Source: Thermodesulfobacteriota bacterium (GTDB taxonomy: Bacteria > Desulfobacterota > Desulfobulbia > Desulfobulbales > SURF-16). Taken from it: DNA of 32,000 nt. Of this stretch, positions 8,819 to 30,582 are shown one piece after another; position 1 is the stretch's first letter; each line of letters opens with the position of its first letter. The DNA lies in the NCBI GenBank assembly GCA_040755455.1, contig JBFMAY010000014.1, positions 30,308 through 62,307 on the forward strand, read 5' to 3'. Position numbers and translations under genes: made by a program. Under the pieces are notes generated by a model. The model had not been told where the DNA came from and ran no database searches. It saw only the letters and a program-made list of their open reading frames with translations.

Positions 8819-11800
8819 TCAAAAACCATCCAGGAGCTGCAGGAGATCTTCGGCCCGCAGCTTGTTGCTCAGGTCGCTGCCTTCAAGGAGACTGTCAGCA
8901 AGTTCGCGCTTGTCCTGATGCAGCCGGAGAATTTTTTCCTCGATGGTGTTTCTGGTGACCAGCCGGTAGACCGTGACCGGGCGGGTCTGGCCGATGCGGT
9001 GGGCCCGGTCCGAGGCCTGGTCCTCCACCGCCGGGTTCCACCAGGGATCCATGTGGATGACGAAATCGGCGGCGGTGAGATTCAGACCCAGCCCGCCTGC
9101 CTTGAGGCTGATGAGGAAGAGATCGCCGTCTCCTGCCTGGAACTCGGCCACCTGTTCCTGGCGTTTGAGCGCCGGGGTGGTGCCGTCCAGGTATTTATAG
9201 GTGATGTTGCGTTCGTCGAGAAAGGCGCGGATAATGTGAAGGTGCCGGGCAAACTGGCTGAAAACCAAGGCCTTGTGCCGGTTTTCAATAAGATCCATGA
9301 TGATGGTGCCGAAAAGCTCGAGTTTGGAGCTTTGGATAGCCGTATCCGGCTGGACCAGCCTGGGATTGCAGCATGCCTGCCGCAGCCGCATGATCTCGGC
9401 CAGAATCTGCATATGCCGGTGGGACGGCGAGGCATCGGTGTGTTCGATTTTCTCCAGGGCGCGGATGCGCAGTGCTTCATAGAAGGCGGTCTCCTCAGGG
9501 CTCATATCGACCTGGAGAACGACCTCGGTCCGCGGCGGCAGTTCCTCCAGGACCTGGCTTTTCAAGCGCCGGAGAATGAAGGGCTGGATCAGTTTTTTTA
9601 ATTTTTTGCGGGCGTTCTTGTCCTTGTCTTTTTCAATGGCCATGGCATAGCGCTGATTGAACTGCTCCAGGGAACCGAGCAGGCCCGGGTTGATGAAGTT
9701 GAAAAGGTTCCACAGTTCTCCCAGGTGGTTTTCGATGGGGGTGCCGGTGGTGATCATCTTGAAATTGCCGTCGAGTTCCATGGCGGCCCTGGAGCGCTTG
9801 GTGGCGATGTTTTTGATGGCTTGGGCCTCGTCGAGCACGATGACTCGCCATTTTTTCCCTGAAAGGAGTTTGTCCTCCTGTTGCAGCAGGCCGTAACTGC
9901 AGATCAGCACGTCAAAAGGGCCAAGGCCGTCCACCAGCTGTTCCCGTTCCTTGCCGCCGAAGATCAAAGTGTGCAGGGTGGGCGCAAAACGGCGGACTTC
10001 CTCCTGCCAGTTCATGCAGACTGAGGTGGGGGCCACCACCAGCGAAGGGCCGTGCGGAGCCTCCTGCAGAATGATGCCCAGGGTCTGTACGGTTTTTCCC
10101 AGACCCATATCGTCGGCCAGACAGGCGCCGACACCCCAGTGTTTGAGCCGGGCCAGCCATTTGAATCCCTCAATCTGGTACTCGCGCAGTTCGGCCTGCA
10201 GGGTTGTCGGCACCTCGCTCTGAAAGGCGCGTGATTCCCGGATGCGCTGCAGCTGCTCCTGCCACTGCTGGTCGGCGGTCACCTGGATGCCGCTTTCCGT
10301 GAAACCTTCCAGGGTGCAGCATGCCAGGGGATGCATGCGCCTCAGCTGCCCGTGGGCTTCGCTAAAGGAGGTCAATTCATCCAGCTGTTTCCGGAATTCC
10401 CGGGACAGGGCGAGGAACTCACCTTTGCCCAGGGGGATGAATCGGCCGGAATTTGCCTGGATCAGTTCCAGCAACGTTTTCATCTCCATCACCTTGTCTT
10501 GGTCGATGGCGAGTTGTCCGTCCAGTTCAAACCAGTTCTGTTTCCGTCTGATATGCAACTGGAAATCCTGGAAGGAGGCATGGTGGCGGATGGCAAGTTT
10601 TTCCCCTTCAGGCCATTCAATGATGACGTCATCCCCCAGGTTCTGGATTTCCGCAAGCACCTCCAGGCAATCCTGCAGATCCTCGATGAACCACTCGCCG
10701 TCCATCCCGCTCAGTCTGGCCAGGGTGGGGCATCGTTCCTCGATCTGCGCGCAGTTTTCTCTTTCCTTGTCAAGGTTGCGGCAGGTTTGCAGGCGTTTGC
10801 CGTGAATCTCGGCAATGACGTTCACCGCCCCCTCGCCGGGATAGAGATAAGGTCCGCCGACGGCAAAAGGCTTCACCAGCATGGAGACCCGGAAGCCGGT
10901 GCCCACCGGCAGCAGCTGCATGATGATCTTGTCCGCGGCCCGCACCTCTTCGATCTCTCTTGAGGTGGCGCCGATATCGGAGTGTATGGTCAGGCAGGAT
11001 GAAAGATTGCCCAGGGTTTCCAGGACCTGTTTTTTGGCGCCTTCCGGAATGCGGAGACCGTCGTCGCCGATGATTGCCGCAATTTTGCGGTGTTTTTCCG
11101 AGATCTCGATAATCCTGAAGCGGGTGGGGGTCTCCCGCACCGCCATCACCTTTTCATCGCCGATGGGTGATGAGAATTCCAGCAGCACCTTGTCCGCTGT
11201 TTGGGTGGCATGCAGTTCCGGTTCACCCCTGGTGAATTCCACCGGCACGGAGGGATGCGCGCTGGAAAAGAGCAGGGGATGGCCGACCAGGGCGGACAGG
11301 GTTTCATCCATGTCAAATTCAAAGGAGGTTTCATGGCTGAACTCCTTTTTGCGCAATGACGCCCTGATTCTCTGGTCCTGCTCGGTGAGGAAGGGGAGAT
11401 TTTCGCCGGCGTGCAAACGTTTCAGTGCCACGGAGCGTCCCTGGCTCCATTTGCCGCTGGCGGTGAGTTTTTGTTCCCTGGGGTGAATGGTGACAAAGCC
11501 GTCCTTGAAGTCCACCAGCCAGACCATTCTGTACTGGGGCGGACCAGCATCCTCATCTTCCAGGCTGACGATATTCAGGGCCTTTAAGGCGCGTTGCCAG
11601 GCTTTTTCATGGGGAAGCACGGCGAGGAGCGAGGTGATGGCCGCTTTGCGGCAGACCGCGACGCTGAAATCCTGATAGGACTCGATTTCAGTGGCCTGAT
11701 AGAGCAGGGCCGCATATTCCATGGCCAGCCAGTCGTAGCCGTTTTCCCTGGCCCGGGTGTAAAATTCATGCAGTTCATCCCGCTGGCCTGCTTCCAGCGT

Positions 11801-12964
11801 GCCGTTGAGCCAGAAGCTGCCAAGCCCCATGAACAGGGCCGTCACCGCGTCTTTCCCCCCCTGCTGCCATATCTGCGAAGTGAAATCCGGCTTGAAGTTT
11901 TCCAGTTTGGCCTTGGTCACCTGCTGGAGAATCCTGTAGGCCGGGAGCAGGGGATTATTGCTCTGCTCCGTTTCCACCGTGGCGATAAAGGAGGAGATGA
12001 CCGGATACTTCCGGTAGTCGCCTGATTTCAGCAGGGCCAGGATAAAGATGAGTCCTTCCATGCCGATGAAAAAAACGTTTTTTGCCTCTTTCTTTATGCG
12101 CAGCTCGATCAGATCTTCCTGGAAGCTGGCAATGGCTGCCGGGTTGTTGCCGAGCAGGAATTCCAGCCAGCCACGCAGGCCGAAGGAGTCAATGTGGTTG
12201 CCGGCCTCGGCAATTTTCAGGCGGGCCGCATCCATATCGGCCCGTAGCAGCTGGTTGAGAATAATCAGATAATAGATGGAGGGCCAGCCCTGCCGCGGAA
12301 TCACCTTCAGGGTGTTTTCATCGGTGAGATAAGCAAGAGGCAGGTCGAAGGATTCAAGGTCGAGGAGGCTTTTTCGGCTTATTTCATGGAGGCTGTGGAG
12401 CTGCAGGTGGGGCGGCAGGGTGCTGAACCACCGGGCCTCAAACGGGTTGTTGACGATTTCCACCAGCGGGGAGTGCAGTTCCGAGGTGTCCGGGCAGTCA
12501 TAATAGCGCAGGAGATGTTCGTTGAAATGATCGAACTTGCCCAGGTACAGACCGATGCGCATTTCCCGTAAATGGCGCAGGCTTTTCTGCAGCAGGGTAT
12601 CGTAGGCCTGCCCATTGGCGGGAAGATGTTTGCCGACGATGCGGGCCATGCGGGCAAAGTTGCCGGCGGTCAGGGCTTTCCTGCTGATGATTTCCACCAT
12701 GAGGGGGTGGCACTGGCAGCGCCAGGTCACGAGATCTTGTTCCTGCAGTTTGCGCAGCATAGCGGATTGCGGCCGCGCCGCGCCGGGCAGGTTTGCATCA
12801 TCGTGCCGGCCGGTAAATTCCTGGAAGCAGCTGATGATGGCGGCAGCGCCGGCGGGCTCGAAAATGATCGAGATGAGCTGGAGCAGTTCCTGCTCTTCCC
12901 TGGCCAGGGCTTCATACTGGGAGAGAAGATGCGTAATTTTCCGGGTGGATGAAAATTTTGCCAT
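8819..12964 (-). CDS. SNF2-family DEAD/DEAH-box helicase with large N-terminal extension
   Basis: The 1381-aa ORF has helicase motifs in its C-terminal roughly 480 aa: LADDMGLGKT (motif I), DEAQAIKN (motif II), GTPIENHLGELWNLFNF, and QASDRAHRIGQTRPVTVYRL (motif VI). The preceding roughly 900 aa are helical or of unknown fold. Part of that region may be the bacterial SNF2 helicase-associated domain. Confidence 0.9.
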   Translation of the reverse strand: MAKFSSTRKITHLLSQYEALAREEQELLQLISIIFEPAGAAAIISCFQEFTGRHDDANLPGAARPQSAMLRKLQEQDLVTWRCQCHPLMVEIISRKALTAGNFARMARIVGKHLPANGQAYDTLLQKSLRHLREMRIGLYLGKFDHFNEHLLRYYDCPDTSELHSPLVEIVNNPFEARWFSTLPPHLQLHSLHEISRKSLLDLESFDLPLAYLTDENTLKVIPRQGWPSIYYLIILNQLLRADMDAARLKIAEAGNHIDSFGLRGWLEFLLGNNPAAIASFQEDLIELRIKKEAKNVFFIGMEGLIFILALLKSGDYRKYPVISSFIATVETEQSNNPLLPAYRILQQVTKAKLENFKPDFTSQIWQQGGKDAVTALFMGLGSFWLNGTLEAGQRDELHEFYTRARENGYDWLAMEYAALLYQATEIESYQDFSVAVCRKAAITSLLAVLPHEKAWQRALKALNIVSLEDEDAGPPQYRMVWLVDFKDGFVTIHPREQKLTASGKWSQGRSVALKRLHAGENLPFLTEQDQRIRASLRKKEFSHETSFEFDMDETLSALVGHPLLFSSAHPSVPVEFTRGEPELHATQTADKVLLEFSSPIGDEKVMAVRETPTRFRIIEISEKHRKIAAIIGDDGLRIPEGAKKQVLETLGNLSSCLTIHSDIGATSREIEEVRAADKIIMQLLPVGTGFRVSMLVKPFAVGGPYLYPGEGAVNVIAEIHGKRLQTCRNLDKERENCAQIEERCPTLARLSGMDGEWFIEDLQDCLEVLAEIQNLGDDVIIEWPEGEKLAIRHHASFQDFQLHIRRKQNWFELDGQLAIDQDKVMEMKTLLELIQANSGRFIPLGKGEFLALSREFRKQLDELTSFSEAHGQLRRMHPLACCTLEGFTESGIQVTADQQWQEQLQRIRESRAFQSEVPTTLQAELREYQIEGFKWLARLKHWGVGACLADDMGLGKTVQTLGIILQEAPHGPSLVVAPTSVCMNWQEEVRRFAPTLHTLIFGGKEREQLVDGLGPFDVLICSYGLLQQEDKLLSGKKWRVIVLDEAQAIKNIATKRSRAAMELDGNFKMITTGTPIENHLGELWNLFNFINPGLLGSLEQFNQRYAMAIEKDKDKNARKKLKKLIQPFILRRLKSQVLEELPPRTEVVLQVDMSPEETAFYEALRIRALEKIEHTDASPSHRHMQILAEIMRLRQACCNPRLVQPDTAIQSSKLELFGTIIMDLIENRHKALVFSQFARHLHIIRAFLDERNITYKYLDGTTPALKRQEQVAEFQAGDGDLFLISLKAGGLGLNLTAADFVIHMDPWWNPAVEDQASDRAHRIGQTRPVTVYRLVTRNTIEEKILRLHQDKRELADSLLEGSDLSNKLRAEDLLQLLDGF

Positions 12965-13158
12965 TTTGGTAGTATACCATAAAATTGCGGTCTGACTTGT
13001 TCATTTTTAGCAGCCAGCATGGGGGAAACCAAAAAAACGAGCGCGTCGCCGCCCGCGGCATGGGCCGGCAGGCAGCAAGGGCCGCCGGTTTTGTCCTGCT
13101 ATGATGATATGTGTGTTTTTTACTGGACAAAGTTTCTTTTTTTCAGTTTGTTCATCAC

Positions 13159-13908
13159 ATGAAAATACATTTTTTGGGGGTTGGCGAGGCCTGCGATGCA
13201 CGCTGTCCCAATACATCGCTGCTTGTTACGGTAGGAAACGGCCGGCGTTTTCTGCTTGACTGCGGCTTTACCGTCCCGCATCTCTATTTTGCCGTAAGCC
13301 TCGACCCGGACGAGCTGGATGCGCTGTGGATTTCCCACTTTCATGGCGATCATTTTTTCGGTGTGCCGCTGCTGCTGCTCAGGTTCTGGGAAATGGGCCG
13401 CCGGAAAAAGCTGGTTATTGCCGGGCCCCGGGGAGTACGGGAAAAAATTGCGGCGGCCATGGAGCTTGCCTACCCGGACTTCATGGCCCGGCTCATGTAT
13501 CACCTTGAATTTGTCGAAATTGAACCGGGAGACGGCCGGGACATTGCCGGCACAGGCTGGCGCACGGCGGAAAATGTCCATTCCGAGCGTTGCCTGGCCT
13601 TGTGTATCGATGACGGCGGCCACCGCATCTTTTACAGCGGGGATGGCCGGCCGACCAGGGAGACGGCGGCTCTGGCCCGGGGCTGCGACCTGATCGTGCA
13701 TGAGGCCTTCCGGCTGGGCGAGGAAGTGGACAACCACGGCAGTGTCAGGGGCTGCCTTGAATTCGCCGGCAGGGCCGGGGTGAGGCACCTTGCCCTGGTG
13801 CATGTGCAGCGCACCTGCCGGGAGACCGCCCAACAAACGGTCGCCGGGCTGGTTCGTGACGGTCTGCATGTTTTTCTGCCGGAACCGGGGGAGCTGTTTT
13901 GTTTATAA
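13159..13908 (+). CDS. MBL-fold metallo-hydrolase (RNase Z/BN-like)
   Basis: MKIHFLGVGEA...LLDCG ... ISHFHGDHFFG (the HxHxDH motif) ... HEAF ... LVH. I chose the ATG at 13159; the track ORF starts at 13111. Confidence 0.85.
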   Translation: MKIHFLGVGEACDARCPNTSLLVTVGNGRRFLLDCGFTVPHLYFAVSLDPDELDALWISHFHGDHFFGVPLLLLRFWEMGRRKKLVIAGPRGVREKIAAAMELAYPDFMARLMYHLEFVEIEPGDGRDIAGTGWRTAENVHSERCLALCIDDGGHRIFYSGDGRPTRETAALARGCDLIVHEAFRLGEEVDNHGSVRGCLEFAGRAGVRHLALVHVQRTCRETAQQTVAGLVRDGLHVFLPEPGELFCL

Positions 13909-14001
13909 GGATCTCTGACGGGCGGCAAGATCCCCGGCCATTGGCCTGGAGGTTCCGGCATCATGGTTTTTTTTCATCTTGAAAAATAGCCCGTGCACGG
14001 C

Positions 14002-14029
14002 TTGACTCAACACCAACAGTTGCTATATT
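14002..14029 (+). promoter_or_regulatory. candidate sigma70-type promoter for the BI-1 family gene
   Basis: TTGACT (14002-14007), a 16-nt spacer, then TATATT (14024-14029), about 110 nt upstream of the ATG at 14140. Confidence 0.35.
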
Positions 14030-14139
14030 AATGAGTGCAGCATAATAAGTTGAATTGATAAAAAAATGTCGGGCGCAGCGAAAGCATCATTTGCCCGACC
14101 AGGATTTGCAAGTTCTTGTCACATTAGGGAGGATGATAA

Positions 14140-14856
14140 ATGTACGAAAATGGTTTTAATAGAACGGTTACCGTTTCCCAGGCCGAAACCCAGGCCTCAA
14201 CGATTTTCCTGGCCAAGGTTTTCAACTGGATGGCCATGGGGCTGGGACTCACCGGGCTGATGGCCTTTCTGGTGGCCAACTCGGAAACAGCGATGCAGAT
14301 TTTTATCTTTAACCCCATGATGCGCTGGGGGCTCATTTTTGCCGAGCTGGGGCTGGTTTTTTATCTGTCCGCCAGGGTGATGCGTCTTTCCCCCCAGGCG
14401 GCAACCGCCCTCTTTCTCATCTACTCGGCCTTAAACGGCATCACCCTGTCCGTGATCCTGCATGTGTATACCGCCACCTCCGTGGCCGCCACCTTCTTTA
14501 TCACCGCCGGCATGTTCGGCGCCATGGCCATTTACGGCCTGGTAACCAAGAAGGACCTGAGCGGCCTGGGCTCCTTCATGTTCATGGGGCTGATCGGCAT
14601 GATCATTGCCTCGGTGGTCAATATCTTCCTGCAGAGCTCCATGATGGCCTGGATCGTCTCCGGCCTTGGCGTGATTATCTTCACCGGGCTCACCGCCTAT
14701 GATGTGCAGAAGATTACCCAGATCGGCGCATCCGGCATCATGCGGGAGGGCGAAGCCGCCATCCGCAAGGGGGCGATCATGGGCGCCCTGGCCCTGTATC
14801 TTGATTTCATCAACCTGTTCCTGAGCCTGCTGCATTTCCTCGGCAACCGGGAATAG
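14140..14856 (+). CDS. Bax inhibitor-1/YccA family membrane protein
   Basis: The 238-aa polytopic ORF has the N-terminus ...FLAKVFNWMAMGLGLTGLMAF. The C-terminal motifs GLTAYDVQKI and ALYLDFINLF are typical of BI-1/YbhL/YccA proteins. RBS GGGAGG. Confidence 0.9.
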   Translation: MYENGFNRTVTVSQAETQASTIFLAKVFNWMAMGLGLTGLMAFLVANSETAMQIFIFNPMMRWGLIFAELGLVFYLSARVMRLSPQAATALFLIYSALNGITLSVILHVYTATSVAATFFITAGMFGAMAIYGLVTKKDLSGLGSFMFMGLIGMIIASVVNIFLQSSMMAWIVSGLGVIIFTGLTAYDVQKITQIGASGIMREGEAAIRKGAIMGALALYLDFINLFLSLLHFLGNRE

Positions 14857-15133: not shown

Positions 15134-17968
15134 ATGAGTAACACCAAACCCACGGTGTTTATCAGCTACAGCCACAAGGATGAGGAGTGGAAAAATCAGC
15201 TTCTCCCGCATCTCAAGGCCTTTGAGCAGCAGGGCGATCTGCTGCTCTGGCATGACCGCAGGATCGACACCGGCGCAGACTGGTTTCCGGAGATCGAGGA
15301 GGCGGTGGAAAGGTCACGGGTAGCAGTCTGTATTATCTCAGAAAATTTCCTGGCCTCGGATTTCATTATCAAGGAGGAGGTGCCGGACCTGCTGAAACGG
15401 CGGGAGGCCAAAGATCTGATCATTATGCCTTTGCTTGCTGAGCCCTGCCCGTGGCAAGCCATCCGCTGGCTCAAGGGTATCCAGATGTTTCCCTCGGACA
15501 ACAATTGCCTTGCCGCCATCAGAGGCAAAACAAAGCGGAAACAACTGCTGGCGGATTTTGCCATCAAGGTGGCGGATCAGGCAGTTCCTACGAGATTGGA
15601 TGAGTTGCTTACCGTCCGGAAGTCTTCCACGTGCATTATCAGTCTTTGCGAGACATTCCAGCCCTCTCTTGATTATAGAATTGAGATCTCCCATCTTCCC
15701 GTGACCGGGGTCGAACTCTTTGGCCGCGAGGCGGAGCTTGAACTGTTGGACAATTCCTGGAAAGAGGGCAAAACCAATGTCATCAGTTTCGTGGCCTGGG
15801 GCGGGGTGGGGAAATCCACCCTGATCAACCGTTGGCTCGCCGAGATGGCCATGGACAGCTATCGGGCCGTCGCCCGGGTCTTTGGCTGGTCCTTTTACAG
15901 CCAGGGGACCGGTGAGTGGGTCACCTCGGCGGACCGCTTCATTGCCGAGGCCCTGGCCTGGTTTGGTGATCCGGACCCTACGACAGGCTCACCCTGGGAC
16001 AAGGGCCAGCGCCTGGCAGATCTCATTCGCAAAGAGCGGACTCTTCTGGTGCTGGACGGGCTGGAGCCGCTGCAGGCCGAGCATGACTTTGAAAGAGGCC
16101 GGATCAAGGACCCTGGCCTGGCCGTCCTGATTAAAGAATTGGCAAAAGACAATCCCGGCCTCTGCCTCATCACCACCCGTGAACAGGTGGCTGATCTCAA
16201 ACGCTTCCCGCAAAACGTGCTGGAAAGAAATCTTGAGCAGATATCCGCTCAAGCCGGCCGGGCCCTGTTGCGGGTGGGCGGCGTGCGGGGCACGGACCGG
16301 GGATTGGAGGATGCCTCGCGCGCCTTCGGCAATCATGCCCTGGCCGTCAAGCTCCTGGCCGCCTATCTCCATGCGATCCCAGAACACCACATCAAACACG
16401 CGGCCGATATCCCCGACCTGGATATCCTAGATGACCAGGGGCGACAGCCCCGTCGGGTCATGGCCGCCCTGCTGCAGCATTTGGGGGACTGCCCGGAGGT
16501 GGAGTATCTGCGGATTCTTGGCCTATTTGACCGACCGGCGGACCAGGAGGCCCTGACGGCGCTGCTCACTCCGCCGCCTATCCCGGATTTGACCGGTCAG
16601 ATCATGGCAGTTGCCGAAGGAGATCGCCATGACTGCCTCACCCGCCTGCGACGCCTGGGCCTTCTGGCCCCGGCAAGCAGCCATCGCGTCGGCGATCTGG
16701 ACTGCCATCCCCTGGTGCGGGAGCATATGGCCGACCTCCTCCAAAAGCAATTCCCCCAGGCCTGGCAGCAGGGCAACCTGCGGCTTTACGAGCACTATAA
16801 GGGGATAGCCAAGGAATACCCGGACACCATCGAGGAGATGGCTCCGCTTTTTTACGCCTGCGCCCATGGCTGCCGGGCCGGTAACCAACAGGAGGCGCTG
16901 ATTGAGGTGTATTGGAAACGTATTAAAAGGGGGAATGAGCATTACTGCACGCGAAAACTCGGCGCCTTCGGTTCTGATCTGGCGGCCCTGGCCAACTTTT
17001 TCGACTCCATCTGGGACCGGCCCGCGCCAGGGCTTGCTGAAATGTGGCAGGCTTGGGTCTTGGGCAATGCCGGTTTTCGCTTAAAGGCCCTTGGCAGGCT
17101 GGCCGAGGCAAAGAGGCCAATGCGGGACTGCTTGGAAATGTGCATCCGACAGAGAAATTGGTCGGAGGCGTCAAAAATTACTTCCAACCTCAGCGAGCTC
17201 TTCCTCGACCTGGGCGAGATGGCCTGGGCTGTGGAGTATGGGCAACAAACTGTGGAATTGGCCGCGCGCAGCGGTAATCGGCATTCGCGTGTGATTGGCC
17301 TTACCACCCATGCTGTTTCCCGCCATCAGGCCGGCCAATTGGCCGAGGCCGAAGAGCTGTTTCGTCAGGCTGAAGCCATGCAGCGGGAAGAGCAGCTCGA
17401 CTACCCCATGCTCTACTCACTGCGGGGATTCCAATACTGTGACCTGCTCTTTGATCTTTACCCGCCAACCGAGGTCTGGAAACGGGTGAAGAAGACGTTG
17501 GGCTGGGCGGAAAAGGCAACGGGAGTATCCCTCCTCGACATTGGCCTGGACCACCTCACCATGGGCCGGGCCTGCCAGCGGCTAGGTGAGCCGGTCACTG
17601 CCGCCACCTATCTCGCACAAGCCATAGACTTTTTGCGTAAAGCAAATTTTCAAGAGATTCTCCCACGCGGTCTCCTAGCCCGGGCCGCCTTTTGCCGGGA
17701 GCAGGGGCAACTGAACGCCGCCCGCCGGGATCTGGAGGAGGTCCTGGAGATCGCCGAACCCTGCGGCATGCGTCTCCATCTCACCGACTATCATCTGGAG
17801 AGCTGCCGGCTGGGGCTGGCCGAAAACGAGCTGCCCACTGCCCACGAGCATCTGGACAAGGCGAAAAAACTGGTCGCCGAGACCGGCTACCACCGCCGGG
17901 ACCGGGAGGTTCAGGAACTTGAAAAATTGCTGGCCGCCGCAGATACGGCCGGCAAACAGGCACCGTAA
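15134..17968 (+). CDS. TIR - NB-ARC (STAND P-loop NTPase) - TPR protein
   Basis: TIR: TVFISYSHKDEEW...LLWHDRRIDTGADWFPEIEEAVERSRVAVCIISENFLASDFIIKEEV. NB-ARC: Walker A FVAWGGVGKSTL (K227), Walker B LLVLDGLE (D308), RNBS-B-like LCLITTRE, and a GLPL-like GNHALAV. The C-terminal roughly 400 aa are helical TPR-like repeats. Confidence 0.9.
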   Translation: MSNTKPTVFISYSHKDEEWKNQLLPHLKAFEQQGDLLLWHDRRIDTGADWFPEIEEAVERSRVAVCIISENFLASDFIIKEEVPDLLKRREAKDLIIMPLLAEPCPWQAIRWLKGIQMFPSDNNCLAAIRGKTKRKQLLADFAIKVADQAVPTRLDELLTVRKSSTCIISLCETFQPSLDYRIEISHLPVTGVELFGREAELELLDNSWKEGKTNVISFVAWGGVGKSTLINRWLAEMAMDSYRAVARVFGWSFYSQGTGEWVTSADRFIAEALAWFGDPDPTTGSPWDKGQRLADLIRKERTLLVLDGLEPLQAEHDFERGRIKDPGLAVLIKELAKDNPGLCLITTREQVADLKRFPQNVLERNLEQISAQAGRALLRVGGVRGTDRGLEDASRAFGNHALAVKLLAAYLHAIPEHHIKHAADIPDLDILDDQGRQPRRVMAALLQHLGDCPEVEYLRILGLFDRPADQEALTALLTPPPIPDLTGQIMAVAEGDRHDCLTRLRRLGLLAPASSHRVGDLDCHPLVREHMADLLQKQFPQAWQQGNLRLYEHYKGIAKEYPDTIEEMAPLFYACAHGCRAGNQQEALIEVYWKRIKRGNEHYCTRKLGAFGSDLAALANFFDSIWDRPAPGLAEMWQAWVLGNAGFRLKALGRLAEAKRPMRDCLEMCIRQRNWSEASKITSNLSELFLDLGEMAWAVEYGQQTVELAARSGNRHSRVIGLTTHAVSRHQAGQLAEAEELFRQAEAMQREEQLDYPMLYSLRGFQYCDLLFDLYPPTEVWKRVKKTLGWAEKATGVSLLDIGLDHLTMGRACQRLGEPVTAATYLAQAIDFLRKANFQEILPRGLLARAAFCREQGQLNAARRDLEEVLEIAEPCGMRLHLTDYHLESCRLGLAENELPTAHEHLDKAKKLVAETGYHRRDREVQELEKLLAAADTAGKQAP

Positions 17969-18184: not shown

Positions 18185-18200
18185 GCGCAAGGAGAAAGTC

Positions 18201-19691
18201 ATGCCCTTACCCCAATACGATGAAGTTCATGTCATCTCCGACCTCCACATGGGAGGGGAGAGCGGTTTTCAGATTCTCCGGGAGACCGAAAAACTCGCGG
18301 GTTTTATCCGCTGGGTCGCGGAACAAAAGCCGGACGGCCGGGTGGCCCTGGTGTTGAACGGGGATGTCATCGACACCCTGGCCGAGGAGAGCGGCGGCTA
18401 CATCGCGGTGGACAATGCCGAGGCCGTGGTCAAGCGGATCATGGCCGACCCGGCCTTTGCACCGGTCTGGGCCAGCCTGGCGGACTTTGTCAAAATTGCC
18501 AACCGCACCCTGGTCATGGTGCTCGGCAACCATGATCTGGAGATGTCCTTCCCCGGAGTGCAGCGCCTGGTGGTGGAAAGGCTGGCCGGGGATGATCCCC
18601 TGGCCCGGGCCCGCATCGAGTTTTCCACCATGGGGGCCGGTTTTTCCTGCCTGGTGGGCGGCTCCCGGGTCTTCTGCACCCATGGCAACGAGGTGGACGC
18701 CTGGAACTATACCCGTTACGAGGATCTTGCCAGGGCGGGCCGGCGGCTCAGCAGCGGCCGGTCGCTCAAACCAAGCGAATGGGAGCCCAACGCCGGCACC
18801 ATGATGGTCAAGGACGTCATGAATACGGTAAAAAAAGACTACCCCTGGATCGACCTGTTGAAACCGGAGATGCAGGCCGCGGTGGGGGTGCTCCTGGCCC
18901 TTGACCCCGGCCAGGTGGAGAAAATCAACCGCCTCCTGCCCATCATCGGCGAGAAGGTGGTGGGCAGCATGGAGGTGGATCAACGGCTCTCGGCCGAGGG
19001 TTTCATTGCTCCGGCCAAAAAGGAGGCCCGTCCCGCCTCGGTGGATAGTCTGCTTGGCCCCAGCCTCATGGAGGGACTGCGCAGCGGCGCCGGGGCCAAC
19101 CGTCCCACGGCTGACGCCCTGCTGCTTTCGGCGGAAAGGAAATACAAAACCGGCAGCGCCGTCACCGACCCCCATGACGAAACCCTGGGCACCGGCCAGT
19201 ATCTCTGGGACCGGTTCACCGGCTGGTTCAGAGGGGTCAGCAAGGTCGAGGCCCTGCGCCGGGCACTGAAAGACTGGCTCAAGGATGACCGTACCTTTGA
19301 TATCAAGGACCGGGACGAGACCTGCAAAGAGGTGGTGGCCTCGGTGGGGCAGGGCATTCATTTCCTGGTCACCGGCCACACCCATCTGGAAAGGGCCATT
19401 GACCTGGGCGGCGGCCGTTTCTACTTTAACTGCGGCACCTGGATCCGTTTGCTGAAATTCAGCAAGGCCATGCTGGAAGACGAAACGGCCTTCACGCCGG
19501 TATATGAGCTGCTGGTCAACGGTACAATGGAGAAAATCGACAAAAAGGACTTTAACGGTCAGCCCTTTGTCATGCCCCAGCAGAGCGCGGTCAGCATCAG
19601 GGTTGAAGCGGGGAAGGTGGTGGGCAGACTGCTCCACATAGAGGGAATCGACCCAGTCTCTCCGAAGACAATCCAACAGTTCACGAGGTAA
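18201..19691 (+). CDS. calcineurin-like metallophosphoesterase with large internal insertion
   Basis: MPE motifs occur in order: VISDLHMGG (D14, H16), LNGDVID (D55), LGNHDLE (N110, H111), CTHGNE (H161), VTGHTHLE (H393, H395). About 220 aa with no recognisable motifs lie between H161 and GHTH. Confidence 0.85.
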   Translation: MPLPQYDEVHVISDLHMGGESGFQILRETEKLAGFIRWVAEQKPDGRVALVLNGDVIDTLAEESGGYIAVDNAEAVVKRIMADPAFAPVWASLADFVKIANRTLVMVLGNHDLEMSFPGVQRLVVERLAGDDPLARARIEFSTMGAGFSCLVGGSRVFCTHGNEVDAWNYTRYEDLARAGRRLSSGRSLKPSEWEPNAGTMMVKDVMNTVKKDYPWIDLLKPEMQAAVGVLLALDPGQVEKINRLLPIIGEKVVGSMEVDQRLSAEGFIAPAKKEARPASVDSLLGPSLMEGLRSGAGANRPTADALLLSAERKYKTGSAVTDPHDETLGTGQYLWDRFTGWFRGVSKVEALRRALKDWLKDDRTFDIKDRDETCKEVVASVGQGIHFLVTGHTHLERAIDLGGGRFYFNCGTWIRLLKFSKAMLEDETAFTPVYELLVNGTMEKIDKKDFNGQPFVMPQQSAVSIRVEAGKVVGRLLHIEGIDPVSPKTIQQFTR

Positions 19692-19695
19692 CCAT

Positions 19696-21648
19696 ATGTC
19701 CACGATCCACAACGTCAAACTGGAAATCCTGCGGCCCGGCCCGGCCCACAACCAGCTCCTTTCCCCGCTGACCCCTTATCTGGTCCTCTGCGGGGCGGAC
19801 GGCCCGGTGACCGTGCACCTGCCTTTTGAACAGAGGCAGCTCCTCATGCGACTGGAGCGGCTGCGCTATTCCAGCCAGGGAACAGCCATTGCCGCCGGGC
19901 AACGGGAGGCCGAGCTGCACGAACTGGGTGAGACCCTCGGCCGGATATTCGGCCAGGTTCCCGCCCTGCTGGCCGAACTCGGCAGTGTCCGGTCGCAAAC
20001 GGGAAAGCTCGTGCATCTGCGGCTGTCGCTCTCCGCCTTTGAACTGGCCCTGTTGCCATTTGAGACGGCCATTGCCGCCGACGGTTTTCCCGGCTCCGGC
20101 TCCCCCCTCTTTCTGCAATCAAACCTGCCCATCACCCTGACCAGGGAGGTGCGCCGCGGCCGGCCGCTGCCGGTGGAATGGAATCGGCCGCCCCGCATCC
20201 TCTTTATCTTCGCCTCGCCCGGGGGGCTGGCGGCGGTGCCTTACGAGCAGCATCTGCTGGCGCTGCGCCGTGCCATTGACCCGTGGGTGAAGATCCTGGA
20301 CAAAGAGGAGGAACGCCTGGCCGAGGTGAAAAATATCCTCACCGTGCTGCCCGAGGCGACTCTTGAGCAGATCCGGCAGGCCTGCATGGATACCGAATAC
20401 ACCCATGTCCATATCCTGGCCCATGGCGCCCCCTATGATCATGCCGGCGACCAGCATTACGGGCTTGCCCTGTGCAGCAGCGACAAGCCAGCGGAAATCG
20501 ATGTGGTTGACGGCGAGCGGCTCTCCATCGCCCTAACCACGGACCGGGCCTCGGCCTGCGGGGCCCGGAAGCGGCCCACCGTGGTCTCGCTGGCGACCTG
20601 TGATTCCGGTAATGTGCGCTCCGTGCTCATCCCGGGCGGCAGCATCGCCCACGAACTGCACGCAGCCGGCATCCCCTGGGTTTTTGCCTCCCAGTTTCCC
20701 CTGTGGATGCGTTCCTCCACCATCTTCACCGAGGTTCTCTATAAACGTTTGCTCAAAGGGGCCGATCCCCGCTGCGTGCTGCACGAACTGCGGCAACGGC
20801 TGCGCACCTCCTGCCAGGAGACCCACGACTGGGCGAGCATCGTGGCCTATGCCGCCGTGCCCTGGGATTTTGAAAACCAGGTAAGTGACTTTCGTGATGA
20901 GCAGACCCGCCGGCGGATCGAAACCAGATTCGCCCGCATCGATGATCTGCTCAAGGCCGGGAAGTCCGAGGGCCAGGATGAGAAAACGGTTACAGGGGAG
21001 ATGGCTGAGCTCTGTGCGGCCATTCGTGAGGAACTCAAGACATGGCGGGAAGAACCGGTCGCCCAATCTTCCGGCAAGGAGCTGGCTGAACGTCTGGGTG
21101 TGACTGCTGCCAGCGAAAAACGGATCGGTATCGCCTATGACCAGGTACCGGACAAAAAGAAAGAAAGCCTGGATGCCTACCGGAAATCCTGCGAATTCTA
21201 TAAAAAAGCCATTGAGGCCGAGCCTTCCAATCACTGGGTCATCACCCAGTATCTGTCAATGCTTGCGGTCAAAAATCGGGCGGAATACGGTGACATGACC
21301 GAACTGGTAAAGGAATACGGCCACTGGTGGTTCACAGCCCGGCAGATCAGCGGCTGGCATTTGCTCACCAAGAGTGGGGAAGACCTGGCCTGGGCCTACG
21401 GCACACTGGCCGAACTGGAAATGTTGGGTGCTCTTTATGGCGGCGAGGAATTCGACAGGCAGGAGGCTAAGGAGGAGATTACTCGCTATTGCGGCCAAAT
21501 CCTGCAAATCTGCGGTCCCCATGGGTTTCCCGTAGAATCAACCGCGCGGCAATTCCGCCGCTATGTGGAGATCTGGCAACACGAGAAATGGGATGATCTT
21601 GCCAAGACTGCCCTTGCCGCCTTCGGGGGGAGTGATGTATGCTCTTAA
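19696..21648 (+). CDS. CHAT-domain (caspase-fold) protease with helical TPR-like C-terminal region
   Basis: The catalytic dyad context is intact: THVHILAHGA (His243, nt 20422-20424) and VVSLATCDSG (Cys302, nt 20599-20601). The upstream LRLSLSAFELALLPFETA and PRILFIFASP segments are typical of CHAT. The ATG lies 4 nt after the MPE stop, with GAGG inside the end of the MPE ORF. Confidence 0.85.
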   Translation: MSTIHNVKLEILRPGPAHNQLLSPLTPYLVLCGADGPVTVHLPFEQRQLLMRLERLRYSSQGTAIAAGQREAELHELGETLGRIFGQVPALLAELGSVRSQTGKLVHLRLSLSAFELALLPFETAIAADGFPGSGSPLFLQSNLPITLTREVRRGRPLPVEWNRPPRILFIFASPGGLAAVPYEQHLLALRRAIDPWVKILDKEEERLAEVKNILTVLPEATLEQIRQACMDTEYTHVHILAHGAPYDHAGDQHYGLALCSSDKPAEIDVVDGERLSIALTTDRASACGARKRPTVVSLATCDSGNVRSVLIPGGSIAHELHAAGIPWVFASQFPLWMRSSTIFTEVLYKRLLKGADPRCVLHELRQRLRTSCQETHDWASIVAYAAVPWDFENQVSDFRDEQTRRRIETRFARIDDLLKAGKSEGQDEKTVTGEMAELCAAIREELKTWREEPVAQSSGKELAERLGVTAASEKRIGIAYDQVPDKKKESLDAYRKSCEFYKKAIEAEPSNHWVITQYLSMLAVKNRAEYGDMTELVKEYGHWWFTARQISGWHLLTKSGEDLAWAYGTLAELEMLGALYGGEEFDRQEAKEEITRYCGQILQICGPHGFPVESTARQFRRYVEIWQHEKWDDLAKTALAAFGGSDVCS

Positions 21649-21740
21649 AATAGCATCCGGCAGAACACAGGGTGAAATGTTTCCCCTGCTGCCTATGGTG
21701 CCCGCCATGCATGGCAAGTAAATAGAAAGAAGGAAATATC

Positions 21741-22058
21741 TTGAGTAAGCCGGTGACAAAGATCAACACCCCCTTCGGGGAGTATGAGCCGCGGATTGCC
21801 GGCCGCGACCAACTGGAGCGCGCGGCGGCGGTCATGGGCGAGGCGGTGGAGGCCATCGCCCGGGTCAACCATGACCGGTGGGCGGCGGAGAGGATTGCCC
21901 AGGGCTGGCGCTACGGGGAAGAGCGGGATGACGCCGGAAAACTGCATCCGGATCTAGTCCCTTACGAGCACCTGACGGAAGCGGAAAAACGAATCGATGT
22001 GGAGGGGGCCAAGGCCATCGTTGCCGAACTGCTCAGGCTTGGCATTCTTCGGCAATGA
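21741..22058 (+). CDS. stand-alone RyR-domain protein
   Basis: AIARVNHDRWAAERIAQGWRYGEERDDAGKLHPDLVPYEHLTEAEKRIDVEGAKAIV matches the RyR repeat consensus (hd.Wa......GW.yG...d...k.hP.LvPy.eL.e.eK..dr). TTG start at 21741 with AAGGA upstream; an alternative ATG lies at 21834. Confidence 0.75.
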   Translation: MSKPVTKINTPFGEYEPRIAGRDQLERAAAVMGEAVEAIARVNHDRWAAERIAQGWRYGEERDDAGKLHPDLVPYEHLTEAEKRIDVEGAKAIVAELLRLGILRQ

Positions 22059-22078
22059 TTCCCTCATCTCATCAGCTG

Positions 22079-28120: not shown

Positions 28121-29182
28121 ATGACGCAGGAAACAAGAACGCTGGCGGAGCTTGCCGCCTTGGTGGAAGGGGAATTGCTCGGTGATCCGGGGGTGAGGAT
28201 TTCAGCTTTCAATGACGTGGCCAACGCGTCTGCCGGGGATATCACTTTTATTGCCGGAGGGAAATATTCCGACCAGCTTGCGCGAACCGGAGCCTCGGCG
28301 ATCATTGTGCCCCACGATATGCAGGAAGTAGCTCTTCCGGCGATCCGGGTGAAGAACCCCTATCTGGCTGCCGCCATTATCCATAACCTGTTTTATCAAA
28401 GGCCGCGCCCTGCGCCTGGGATCGATGGCCGTGCCGTCATCGGAGCGGATTGCCGCATCGCCCCTTCGGTGTCCGTTGCCCCGCTGGCAATGGTCGGCCG
28501 GGGGGTCACCCTTGGGGAAAGGGTGGTCATCGAGTCCGGGGCGGTTATCGGCGATGACGTGATCATCGGCGACGAGACAATTGTGGAGGCAAACGTGGTA
28601 GTGCGGGCCGGCTGCAGAATCGGCAGCCGGGTGATTCTTTACAGCGGCGCGGTGATCGGCAGTGACGGCTTCGGCTACGCCACCAATGCCCGGGGCATCC
28701 ATATCAAGCGGCCCCAAGTCGGCAATGTGGTGATTGAGGATGATGTCGAGATCGGAGCAAATACCTGCATTGACCGGGCCACCTTCGGCAGCACGCTGAT
28801 CAGAAAGGGGACGAAAATCGATAACCTGGTGCAAATCGGCCACAATGTGGAGATCGGCGAGGGATGCCTGCTGGTCTCTCAATGCGGTGTTGCCGGCAGC
28901 AGCAGGCTGGGCAATGGAGTGGTGCTGGCCGGCCAGTCAGGGGTCGGCGATCATGTGGAGGTAGGCGACGGGGTCATGGCGGCGGGCCGCAGCGGCATCA
29001 ACAGCAACGTCAAGCCGGGGGCGGTGGTGGCCGGGTTCCCGGCTATCGCCTATAAGGAATGGCTGCAGGCGGCCACGGCTTTTTCGCGGATTCCCCAGTT
29101 GGTAAAAGATGTGCGCCGTCTGCGTAAACTGATGAGCGAACCGGCGGGAGATGAAAAAAACAAGGAGACAGGAGATGAGTGA
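28121..29182 (+). CDS. lpxD: UDP-3-O-(3-hydroxyacyl)glucosamine N-acyltransferase
   Basis: The 353-aa ORF has the N-terminus LAELAALVEGELLGDPGVRISAFNDVANASAGDITFI. Long hexapeptide (LbH) repeats follow, with GFGY in the middle. It sits in an lpxD-fabZ-lpxA context. Confidence 0.92.
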   Translation: MTQETRTLAELAALVEGELLGDPGVRISAFNDVANASAGDITFIAGGKYSDQLARTGASAIIVPHDMQEVALPAIRVKNPYLAAAIIHNLFYQRPRPAPGIDGRAVIGADCRIAPSVSVAPLAMVGRGVTLGERVVIESGAVIGDDVIIGDETIVEANVVVRAGCRIGSRVILYSGAVIGSDGFGYATNARGIHIKRPQVGNVVIEDDVEIGANTCIDRATFGSTLIRKGTKIDNLVQIGHNVEIGEGCLLVSQCGVAGSSRLGNGVVLAGQSGVGDHVEVGDGVMAAGRSGINSNVKPGAVVAGFPAIAYKEWLQAATAFSRIPQLVKDVRRLRKLMSEPAGDEKNKETGDE

Positions 29183-29621
29183 AGTTGTCACGCAATATGA
29201 TATAAATGAAATCTTAAAGCTGCTTCCCCACCGCTACCCCTTTATTCTGGTGGACCGGATTCTGGCGGTGACCCCCGGTGAGGCGATCAAGGCATTGAAA
29301 AATGTCACCATTAATGAGCCCTTTTTTCAAGGCCATTTTCCCACTGAGCCGGTAATGCCTGGTGTGCTGGTGATGGAGGGGATGGCCCAGGCCGGGGCCA
29401 TTCTGGCCTATCTCACTGATAAAGATAAGATTGGTAAAAATCTGGTCTATTTTGCCGGCATGGACGGGGTGCGTTTCAGGAAAAAAATCGTGCCCGGTGA
29501 TCAGATTATCTATGAGCTGAATATCATGAAACGCAAAGCAAAACTTTTCAAGATTGCCGGCAAGGCCTTTGTCGATGGCCAGCTGGCGGCAGAGGCGGAA
29601 CTGATGGCCACCTTTTCCTGA
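29175..29621 (+). CDS. fabZ: 3-hydroxyacyl-ACP dehydratase FabZ
   Basis: LPHRYPFILVDRI, FFQGHFP..PVMPGVL..EGMAQ. I chose the ATG at 29175, preceded by GGAGACAGGAG. It overlaps the lpxD stop (ATGAGTGA). The track ORF starts at 29151. Confidence 0.92.
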   Translation: MSEVVTQYDINEILKLLPHRYPFILVDRILAVTPGEAIKALKNVTINEPFFQGHFPTEPVMPGVLVMEGMAQAGAILAYLTDKDKIGKNLVYFAGMDGVRFRKKIVPGDQIIYELNIMKRKAKLFKIAGKAFVDGQLAAEAELMATFS

Positions 29622-29781
29622 CGCCTTTTGCCGGCAGCGGGAAAGGCTGGTAATTACCGGCCTTCTGTGTTAAAAAGACTAGTTTTTCATTGCCTGTTTC
29701 CACCTTGGGTGACGAGACATGGCGGCAATCGGCATGCCTGGCATACATCCTAACATGTAACACTTAACATCTTGTGCAAAT

Positions 29782-30582
29782 ATGACTATTCACTCCACAG
29801 CTATTATTGACCCGGGCGCGGAACTGGATTCATCGGTTTCCGTCGGCCCCTATGCGGTCATCGGCAAGGGGGTCAGGATCGATGCTGACTCCCAGATAGG
29901 TCCCCATGCCTTTCTTTCCGGCCCCCTTACCATCGGCAAGGCCAATAACATCGGCGCCTTTGCCTGCGTCGGCGCCCCTCCCCAGGACATCAAATACAAG
30001 GGGGAGGAAACCTTACTCAGGATCGGTGACGCCAATATCATCCGGGAATACTGTTCCATCCATCGCGGCAGCCCGAGCGGCCATGGCGTCACCACCATCG
30101 GCAGCAACTGCATGTTCATGGCCTATTCCCATGTGGCCCATGACTGCGTGATCGGCAACCATGTCATTCTGGTCAACAATGCCACCCTGGGAGGGCACGT
30201 GGAGATCGGCGAGCGGGTCACCGTGGGCGGCATGACGGCTGTCCATCAGTTCTCCCGCATCGGTGAATATTCTTTTATCGGCGGCATGTCCGGTATCAGC
30301 ATGGATGTGCCGCCCTATGTGATTGTGGCAGGTATCCGCAATGACATGCAGGTGCGCGGCATTAACAAGATCGGGCTCAAGCGCGCCGGCTTCAGCAATG
30401 AGGATATCCGTAATCTCGGCCGGGCCTTTACCCTGATATTCAAAACCAGGGACCTGCTGCTGCAGGAAGCGCTGGAAAAGGTGAAGATGGAAATTTCCGA
30501 TTCCGCTCCGGTGGCGCGGATGGTAGAATTTTTTGCTGTATCCAACCGCAATGTGGTCCGCTTAAGCAGTGATGACGAGTAG
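29782..30582 (+). CDS. lpxA: acyl-ACP--UDP-N-acetylglucosamine O-acyltransferase
   Basis: IHSTAIIDPGAELDSSVSVGPYAVIG plus hexapeptide repeats, then the C-terminal helical domain GLKRAGFSNEDI..L..AF. The ORF is 266 aa. Confidence 0.92.
   Translation: MTIHSTAIIDPGAELDSSVSVGPYAVIGKGVRIDADSQIGPHAFLSGPLTIGKANNIGAFACVGAPPQDIKYKGEETLLRIGDANIIREYCSIHRGSPSGHGVTTIGSNCMFMAYSHVAHDCVIGNHVILVNNATLGGHVEIGERVTVGGMTAVHQFSRIGEYSFIGGMSGISMDVPPYVIVAGIRNDMQVRGINKIGLKRAGFSNEDIRNLGRAFTLIFKTRDLLLQEALEKVKMEISDSAPVARMVEFFAVSNRNVVRLSSDDE

Follow-up and report, generated by a model that had tools for sequence, protein, structure and literature searches.

A metallophosphoesterase–CHAT protease gene pair as a candidate protease-gated pro-enzyme module in bacteria

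Protease-gated effectors are already established in bacterial immunity. Nucleases of the metallo-β-lactamase (MBL) fold and α/β-hydrolases are known as zymogens in which two loops are cleaved by a trypsin- or caspase-like protease linked to them, which is equipped with diverse sensors (Tuck et al. 2025, PMC12799240; Evans et al. 2025, PMC12642450). Here we describe a gene pair that may follow a related logic and that encodes a metallophosphoesterase (MPE) and a CHAT protease. It lies in 32,000 nucleotides of DNA from a Thermodesulfobacteriota bacterium (assembly GCA_040755455.1, contig JBFMAY010000014.1, positions 30,308 to 62,307), a stretch referred to below as the window and numbered from its first letter. 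Conserved adjacency of the two genes, together with conserved leucines in a segment of the MPE, suggests that the CHAT protease may gate the MPE by cleavage.

In Evans et al. 2025 (PMC12642450), 'MPE' appears as one of ten protease-associated effector families, and as an uncharacterised one. CHAT proteases usually have their substrates encoded next door, as work on Craspase has noted. A CHAT protease of Runella cuts the neighbouring gasdermin after Leu247, in a flexible loop in which the Leu-Gly dipeptide is essential, and cleavage releases auto-inhibition (Johnson et al., bioRxiv 10.1101/2021.06.07.447441). Craspase, the type III-E complex of gRAMP with the TPR-CHAT protein Csx29, cuts Csx30 after L407. 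In type IV Thoeris, a short TIR protein is combined with a caspase-like protease that is Arg-specific and promiscuous (Rousset et al., bioRxiv 10.1101/2024.10.24.620036).

A closely coupled pair inherited as a unit

The MPE gene occupies 18201-19691 and the CHAT gene 19696-21648, both on the plus strand, as are all features within the pair described below. The first is an open reading frame (ORF) of 496 aa matched by the Metallophos profile of Pfam (PF00149; E 4.5e-9; 37.5 bits, with the cut-off at 21.5), while the second is an ORF of 650 aa matched by the profile of the caspase-fold CHAT family (PF12770, clan CD; E 1.1e-22; 81 bits, with the cut-off at 24). The coupling junction (19685-19698) reads acGAGGTAAccatATG, in the layout acGAGG-TAA-ccat-ATG. 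GAGG (19685-19688) falls inside the final MPE codons and is followed by the stop TAA (19689-19691), 4 nt and the CHAT start ATG (19696-19698). An earlier note, made from the letters of the window, had reported these ORFs, the 4-nt spacing and the GAGG inside the MPE gene, all of which are exact by coordinates.

The close coupling that it described extends beyond the window. The gap between the two genes is -4 to +10 nt in all 23 loci with mapped gene ends (the window and 22 others, with ends taken from sequence, gene calls or record annotation). Among the 14 junctions inspected at sequence level, AGG, GAGG or GGAG usually stands just 5' of the MPE stop. A scan for promoters and terminators around the pair gave nothing better than shuffled sequences. 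The G+C content is 61% for the pair (18201-21648) and 55% for the whole window.

Conserved adjacency had been set beforehand as the observation on which the proposed partnership would stand or fall, and a CHAT gene was found directly 3' of the MPE gene in 95 of 98 related loci. These 98 are the loci with a full-length MPE or with room for a 3' gene, counted without de-replication and with near-identical loci included. The 95 comprise 11 of 11 loci in species genomes, whose MPEs are 31-62% identical, 12 of 12 further loci, among them two divergent representatives, and 72 of the 75 metagenome loci in which a further gene had room 3' of the MPE. The CHAT homologues measure 602-731 aa. The family itself is large: 939 MPE homologues were found at E ≤ 0.001 (478-515 aa and at least 58% identical among the 120 matches listed), and an exhaustive profile search at E ≤ 1e-30 returned 733 clusters at 50% identity, mostly full-length at 480-545 aa. 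Hosts of the pair include Desulfobacterota, an anammox planctomycete, Nitrosomonas, Gallionella, Noviherbaspirillum, Syntrophus, Methylocaldum, Paraburkholderia, Methylobacterium and Myxococcota.

The two proteins have also diverged together. Pairwise distances of MPE and CHAT correlate with r = 0.95 across 43 pairs, a value reached by none of 2000 Mantel permutations, and with r = 0.94 in 13 locus-verified pairs. The MPE and CHAT genes are thus inherited as one unit, while co-divergence alone is no proof of the physical complex of their products that the earlier note suggested. Apart from CHAT, no flanking gene is kept family-wide beside the MPE when the neighbours of related loci are compared. 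Similarity of the window's DNA to two related loci, L048 and L049, opens at 18188-18190 in blastn, which is 11-13 nt 5' of the MPE ATG. The first nucleotides of this shared DNA (18188-18200), which mark the 5' edge of what is common to relatives with other flanks, hold the MPE Shine-Dalgarno sequence aaggag. Because no other gene is kept family-wide and DNA similarity opens at the MPE, the module appears autonomous and mobile. Among the 12 further loci, its carriers include a Methylobacterium plasmid of 37.5 kb and a megaplasmid of Paraburkholderia. The MPE family is scarce on plasmids, and no phage copy was found in the INPHARED collection. In a metagenome-assembled genome of Desulfatiglandales (L010, 7001-9214), MPE residues 1-249 are fused straight to CHAT residues 91-333 and 400-649. 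This is a decayed copy with an internal deletion, which indicates that the pair can be lost.

The phosphoesterase insertion, its leucines and the CHAT protease

All five MPE motifs are present in the window protein: D14-x-H16, G54-D55, G109-N110-H111-D112, H161 and, as motif V, G392-H393-T394-H395 (19374-19385). The metal ligands D14, H16, D55, N110, H111, H161, H393 and H395 are kept in 133-135 of 135 sequences with a median identity of 37% (H393 and H395 in 134). The earlier suggestion that the enzyme is probably active agrees with the retention of every catalytic residue across the family. In an AlphaFold2 (AF2) model, with a predicted local distance difference test score (pLDDT) of 74.8, a confident core is combined with an all-helical insertion. 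The first half of the catalytic core, with motifs I-IV (residues 1-164; 18201-18692), scores above 85 in most 10-residue blocks. The models of both MPE and CHAT were built from shallow alignments of 15 sequences and reach pLDDT 74-75.

The closest solved structures to the MPE model in Foldseek are those of LpxH (E ~2e-5, 12-15% identity), with further fold matches to purple acid phosphatase, Mre11, Vps29 and the zebrafish dimetal phosphatase 2nxf, which we take to be an ADP-ribose/CDP-alcohol diphosphatase. A sequence search of the PDB with the MPE profile found nothing, and no model in PADLOC 2.0 or NCBIfam matched the MPE (NCBIfam at E ≤ 0.01).

Between motifs IV and V lies an insertion at residues 165-385 (18693-19355), made up of a helical cap and a low-confidence centre. 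The earlier note had described it as about 220 aa of unrecognised sequence. That it is real follows from the spacing of H161 and H393, which is 231 residues here, as against about 80 between the equivalent histidines of LpxH. The description as unrecognised holds for part of it. Four MPEs of Myxococcota that lack a CHAT partner (L014, L016, L017 and L018; 333-369 aa), and that sit in a conserved neighbourhood without CHAT, possess the cap helices in the alignment and lack residues ~243-334. From this alignment, the insertion can be divided into an older cap and a CHAT-linked addition of about 92 residues. In LpxH, too, a helical cap is inserted at this position. The possibility, raised beforehand as a refutation, that the insertion is common to a housekeeping MPE family thus applies to the cap helices, given these short and housekeeping-looking myxococcal MPEs, and fails for residues 243-334.

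This central segment (residues 243-334; 18927-19202), found only in CHAT-linked MPEs, is the proposed gating pro-segment. It coincides with the main low-confidence region of the AF2 model. The model's low-confidence stretches are 164-175, 248-279 and 296-334, of which the last two fall in the segment and have pLDDT below 50. It is also the least conserved part of the MPE, with column conservation of 0.03-0.47 among 134 representatives that are 32-59% identical to the window protein.

Within this variable segment, two leucines are almost always kept. Of 135 sequences, 132 have Leu263, and in 121 of the 135 a G, S or A comes next; in an alignment of 53 sequences with 35% mean identity, its column is invariant alongside the catalytic residues. 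In the window, Leu263-Ser264 (18987-18992), with the family consensus G-[F/L]-L then G/S, is the proposed CHAT cleavage site A. The proposed cleavage site C is the near-invariant Leu329-Gly330 (19185-19190), where Leu329 is found in 132 of 135 sequences, with Gly next in 118. A third Leu-Gly island between them, Leu285-Gly286 (LLGP; 19053-19058), is less conserved, being present in 42 of 43 close pairs and in only 79 of 135 sequences of the wider family. The stretch from L263 to L329 is 45-90 aa long (median 66) and rich in Asp, Glu, Ala and Ser, with D+E at 21% compared with 14% elsewhere. No comparable conserved Leu motif was found in CHAT or elsewhere in the MPE. An acidic P4 position ('DxxL-G') seemed conserved in close relatives and was discarded, since it fails in the wider family.

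Loss of these leucines accompanies loss of the protease. The only loci with room for a CHAT gene and without one (L116, L122 and L128) all belong to one sub-branch. Their MPEs keep the catalytic motifs, while Leu263 is gone in all three and Leu329 in two. By comparison, both leucines are kept in 93 of 94 CHAT-linked MPEs. In L116 (5910-6971) and L128 (2346-3416), a protein of 353-356 aa, 74% identical between the two loci, is encoded 3' of the MPE. It showed no similarity to the CHAT profile or to Pfam and PADLOC models and may be an alternative MPE partner. A STAND protein encoded next to a distant MPE that has no CHAT (L013) was examined for a hidden protease, and none was found.

The CHAT protein can be divided into three parts. 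Its caspase-fold catalytic domain (residues ~161-390; 20176-20865) carries the dyad His243 (20422-20424) and Cys302 (20599-20601), and H243-G244 and C302 are invariant across aligned homologues, so that the protease, like the MPE, looks active. The best Foldseek matches of this core are the SAVED-CHAT structure 8tl0 (E 8e-7), caspase-4 and Csx29. The N-terminal region (residues 1-160; 19696-20175) has a conservation of 0.75, rising to about 0.9 at residues 11-40, yet pLDDT is 29-61 when AF2 models the protein alone. This makes it a candidate partner-binding or regulatory region. The C-terminal domain (residues 392-645; 20869-21630), which resembles TPR or TPR-S helical repeats, is the proposed sensor. 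It consists entirely of helices with pLDDT mostly at 82-97 (74 for the model overall) and shows the lowest conservation within CHAT (0.56). Foldseek matches of this tail are to TPR and 14-3-3-like repeats, and a profile search of the PDB with CHAT likewise returned TPR repeats only. A weak Pfam match to TPR-S at 453-522 falls below the cut-off (E 0.0022). No ligand domain of the SAVED, CARF or Macro type was found in CHAT with Pfam and PADLOC, and the SAVED_CHAT model of PADLOC matches only over profile positions 127-268 of 498, which correspond to the CHAT core.

Proteolytic gating and its rivals

These observations are best read as a self-contained two-gene module of a protease and its pro-enzyme. 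The CHAT protease, with its His243/Cys302 dyad, would be inactive until the variable C-terminal TPR-like domain detects a trigger. Once active, it would cut the co-translated MPE after Leu263 and Leu329, both of which are predicted to be in an acidic, flexible stretch (~45-90 aa across the family) inserted in the helical cap over the MPE active site. Excision or opening of this segment would relieve auto-inhibition of the binuclear-metal phosphodiesterase. The released MPE is a candidate nuclease or nucleotide/NDP-X (nucleoside diphosphate-linked) pyrophosphatase, the activity of which may arrest or kill the cell. The parts that we infer are cleavage and the resulting activation, the role of the TPR-like domain as sensor, the MPE substrate and the defence function.

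We give about even odds (0.5) to the reading as a whole, in which the pair is a CHAT-gated MPE zymogen and most likely a conflict system of the anti-phage or abortive-infection type. The MPE is a probable CHAT substrate because the Leu-Gly/Ser motif, which matches the preference of the characterised CHAT proteases of Runella and Craspase for Leu at P1, occurs twice in a segment that only CHAT-linked MPEs have. Among the roles that the earlier note had offered for the insertion and the pair, that of a protease-substrate loop in a protease-gated enzyme is clearly favoured by the alignments and models, since the CHAT-specific segment is of low confidence and its near-invariant Leu-Gly/Ser motifs are lost with CHAT. 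To a more specific version we give somewhat less than even odds: a phosphoesterase zymogen, possibly the first in bacterial immunity, whose acidic and perhaps substrate-mimicking pro-segment would be excised at two sites by a Leu-Gly-specific CHAT protease, with tuning by lineage-specific RyR or TIR-like/TPR-S accessories.

Several points weigh against protease gating in defence. The three CHAT-less loci form one clade and therefore represent one evolutionary event, which makes their loss of the leucines suggestive rather than statistical. The AF2 alignments are shallow, and low confidence is therefore no proof of disorder. The conserved Leu-Gly might serve in docking or as a pseudo-substrate instead. 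Many pair loci sit amid housekeeping genes, with no obvious defence islands. PADLOC 2.0 has no match for the MPE, and CHAT matches only the CHAT part of its SAVED_CHAT model. Finally, no published cleavage, toxicity or phage-defence data were found for the MPE family in the literature searched, nor did it yield experimental work on an MPE-protease pair.

In a reading with the roles reversed, the MPE would act as sensor or regulator and CHAT as executioner. As a pseudo-substrate or tether, the Leu-Gly loop would fill the cleft of CHAT until the MPE binds or processes a nucleic-acid or nucleotide cue, upon which CHAT would be freed for broad protein degradation, as in type IV Thoeris or PCaspase. 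Promiscuous executioner proteases of the caspase-like kind do exist in bacteria, and the Leu-Gly motifs are as compatible with a pseudo-substrate as with a substrate. CHAT residues 1-160, conserved and not confidently folded alone, look as expected of a partner-bound region, and Mre11 is among the MPE fold matches. MPEs of the Mre11/SbcD type recognise DNA ends. However, a pure sensor would have no need of the catalytic residues, which are all kept in 135 sequences, and CHAT has its own variable TPR-like domain at the usual sensor position. Two conserved Leu-Gly/Ser sites around a variable segment also resemble two-cut zymogens, and we consider the reversal unlikely. It is somewhat less probable still that the pair has a physiological role in a common pathway outside defence, such as phosphoesterase-coupled proteolysis, either stress-triggered or developmental. 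The genomic contexts are mixed. In favour of physiology, many flanks are housekeeping genes (RNase E, M16 peptidase, oxidoreductases, ABC transporters), neither a PADLOC model for the pair nor a phage copy was found, and most hosts are environmental bacteria whose genomes are large. At other loci, however, transposases, toxin-antitoxin genes and TIR, STAND, WD40 and CARF-like genes lie near the pair. Its spread across phyla is patchy, and flanks differ even between close relatives. Together with the decayed copy in L010 and the copy on a small plasmid, this fits a mobile accessory conflict module.

Some of the same neighbours bear on another proposal of the earlier note, that the MPE is a phosphodiesterase tuning a signal. 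In the manner of a ring nuclease, it would hydrolyse a nucleotide messenger that switches CHAT on, for example an ADP-ribose derivative made by a TIR protein. TIR proteins adjoin the pair in the window (15134-17968) and in L003, L045 and L116, and the pair's neighbours in L052, L045, L100, L103, L129 and L005 include a MAP3K_TRAF_bd/TPR-S protein whose PADLOC match is TIR-effector-like. TIR signals activate the caspase-like protease of type IV Thoeris, and the nearest MPE folds include nucleotide-diphosphate pyrophosphatases (LpxH and, on the assignment given above, 2nxf). Yet neither a TIR nor a cyclase gene is conserved with the pair, such genes being absent from ~85-90% of loci. The TIR gene of the window lies outside the common DNA unit and, in the relative L050, is separated from the pair by a transposase. 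CHAT has no SAVED, CARF or Macro-type domain with which to bind a ligand, and the Leu-Gly loop, along with its loss together with CHAT, is left unexplained. With no signal-producing gene travelling with the pair, this is the weakest of the three rivals and very improbable.

If protease gating of the MPE is correct, the effectors that proteolysis licenses, so far MBL nucleases, α/β-hydrolases and pore-formers, would come to include MPEs, and caspase-like activation logic common with eukaryotic cell death would be extended. The novelty assigned to the pair by the earlier note was nevertheless over-rated, given that protease-gated effectors are established and that MPE is already listed (Evans et al. 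2025, PMC12642450). What the pair offers is a large multi-phylum family with a simple two-gene architecture and precise cut sites, L263 and L329, that are cheap to test. Confirmation would correct the widespread 'LpxH' mis-annotation by the Joint Genome Institute (JGI), and it could yield a Leu-Gly-specific protease/pro-enzyme switch for engineering.

Neighbouring genes and comparison with known systems

A small gene 3' of CHAT encodes a RyR-domain protein of 105 aa (PF02026; 21741-22058, plus strand; Pfam E 2.1e-19). It recurs 3' of CHAT in L048 (11731-12048), L049 (11566-11883), L050 (6276-6593), L051 (9556-9873) and L053 (7566-7877). These relatives are 73-93% identical to the window, with flanks that are otherwise different. 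The DNA common with L048 and L049 spans only 18188-22060 (ending at 22059-22060), and MPE, CHAT and RyR therefore form an inherited unit of this subclade. The RyR gene is absent from most pair loci. RyR-like genes also occur by very divergent MPEs, upstream in L117 (3458-3661) and between the MPE and its non-CHAT partner in L116 (5630-5839).

Another accessory is a protein of ~450-490 aa with MAP3K_TRAF_bd and TPR-S domains, which adjoins the pair in at least six loci: L052 (4495-5976), L045 (9509-10873) and, by tblastn, L100, L103, L129 and L005. In L052 its gap to the pair is 24 nt. The N-terminal part matches the PADLOC 'TIR effector' model (E 9e-8), while the C-terminus has a W-x-Y-[AG]-T-L-x-E-L motif in common with the CHAT tail; the hhalign comparison is weak, and homology is not established. 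This protein may be a sibling with the same sensor type and another effector.

Upstream of the pair, at a distance of 232 nt, a plus-strand gene (15134-17968) encodes a TIR-NACHT/STAND-TPR protein of 944 aa with a ThsB-like TIR (PADLOC E 8.7e-20). It was considered as a third component and rejected, as it is missing from most loci, lies outside the common DNA and is transposase-separated from the pair in the closest relative, L050. It is probably an independent defence gene of the Avs/bNACHT-like kind. Among the TIR neighbours at other loci, that of L003 is an LRR-Roc-COR-TIR protein, and that of L116 is a TIR_2 protein encoded just downstream of the 353-aa gene.

Further upstream, an SNF2-family helicase of 1381 aa (8819-12964, minus strand) matches the PADLOC DpdE model (E 2.8e-186) and also ZorD models very strongly. 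Beside it, no further Dpd or Zorya genes were noticed. In L049, a different SNF2/DEAD protein is encoded downstream of the pair. Between the SNF2 and TIR-STAND genes of the window are two plus-strand genes, one for an MBL-fold hydrolase (13111-13908) with a weak match to the anti-Pycsar protein Apyc1 (E 1.3e-5, well below the cut-off) and one for a membrane protein of the Bax-inhibitor-1 family (14140-14856). On the 37.5-kb Methylobacterium plasmid (L046, NZ_CP099612.1), a four-gene cluster adjoins the pair (9186-14084). It encodes a Dam methylase, a second metallophosphoesterase of 400 aa, a 634-aa protein and a 328-aa protein strongly matching PADLOC CARF6 models (E 1.8e-42), and it looks like another defence-type system on the plasmid.

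Among described proteins, LpxH, the UDP-2,3-diacylglucosamine pyrophosphatase after which JGI names the MPE family, shares the MPE fold and a cap between motifs IV and V. The MPE is twice as long (496 against ~240 aa), has the extra low-confidence segment of ~92 residues and is linked to CHAT rather than to lipid A genes. LpxH reads GNRD where the MPE has GNHD. Identity with LpxH is ruled out by the 12-15% sequence identity, the lack of an NCBIfam match and the CHAT partner in 95 of 98 loci. The window does hold genuine lipid A genes (lpxD and lpxA-like hexapeptide transferases) at 28121-30582, ~7-9 kb 3', which are unrelated to the MPE.

With Craspase and the SAVED-CHAT protein of type III-B systems, the pair shares the CHAT fold, as reflected in the Foldseek matches to Csx29 and 8tl0. 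It differs in having no SAVED domain, no CRISPR effector and other substrates. No cas genes were found among the annotated or scanned neighbours of the pair, and the PADLOC match is confined to the CHAT core, which together rule out a SAVED-CHAT or Craspase identity. Csx29, to judge by the name TPR-CHAT, presumably carries its TPR N-terminal to CHAT, whereas the TPR-like domain here is C-terminal. In the window, the proximity of a TIR gene to that of a caspase-fold protease recalls type IV Thoeris. The TIR here is part of the 944-aa STAND-TPR protein, however, and the Thoeris protease has no MPE partner. As TIR genes occur in a minority of loci and outside the common DNA unit, a type IV Thoeris identity is ruled out.

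Work by Krishnan and colleagues in 2020 on ABC-3C systems is reportedly the source cited for the 'MPE' class of protease-associated effectors, and no ABC ATPase adjoins the pair in loci with Pfam-annotated or scanned neighbours. In Evans et al. 2025, that class likewise places an MPE-like enzyme beside a defence-associated protease, a likeness of description by which membership of the same family is not established. The Runella CHAT-gasdermin pair is similar in that CHAT lies beside a gene whose product has Leu-Gly in a loop, cleavage being proposed in the present case. Its substrate is a pore-former and its protease carries Roc-COR, whereas here the partner is an enzyme and CHAT has a C-terminal TPR-like domain.

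The zymogen modules of MBL pro-nucleases with a trypsin or caspase (Hachiman- and AVAST-linked pairs, Canu) and of α/β-hydrolases with a caspase resemble the pair in their adjoining protease gene, their co-evolution and their proteases with repeat or sensor domains. They also have insertions with conserved small residues, disordered in those systems, and two proposed cut sites. The present pair differs from them in the calcineurin-like fold of the MPE, in the order of its genes, with the MPE first, and in a constant C-terminal TPR-like sensor on CHAT in place of STAND, Hachiman or the like. On this comparison, the MPE-CHAT pair is probably an uncharacterised member of the protease-activated bacterial immune effectors.

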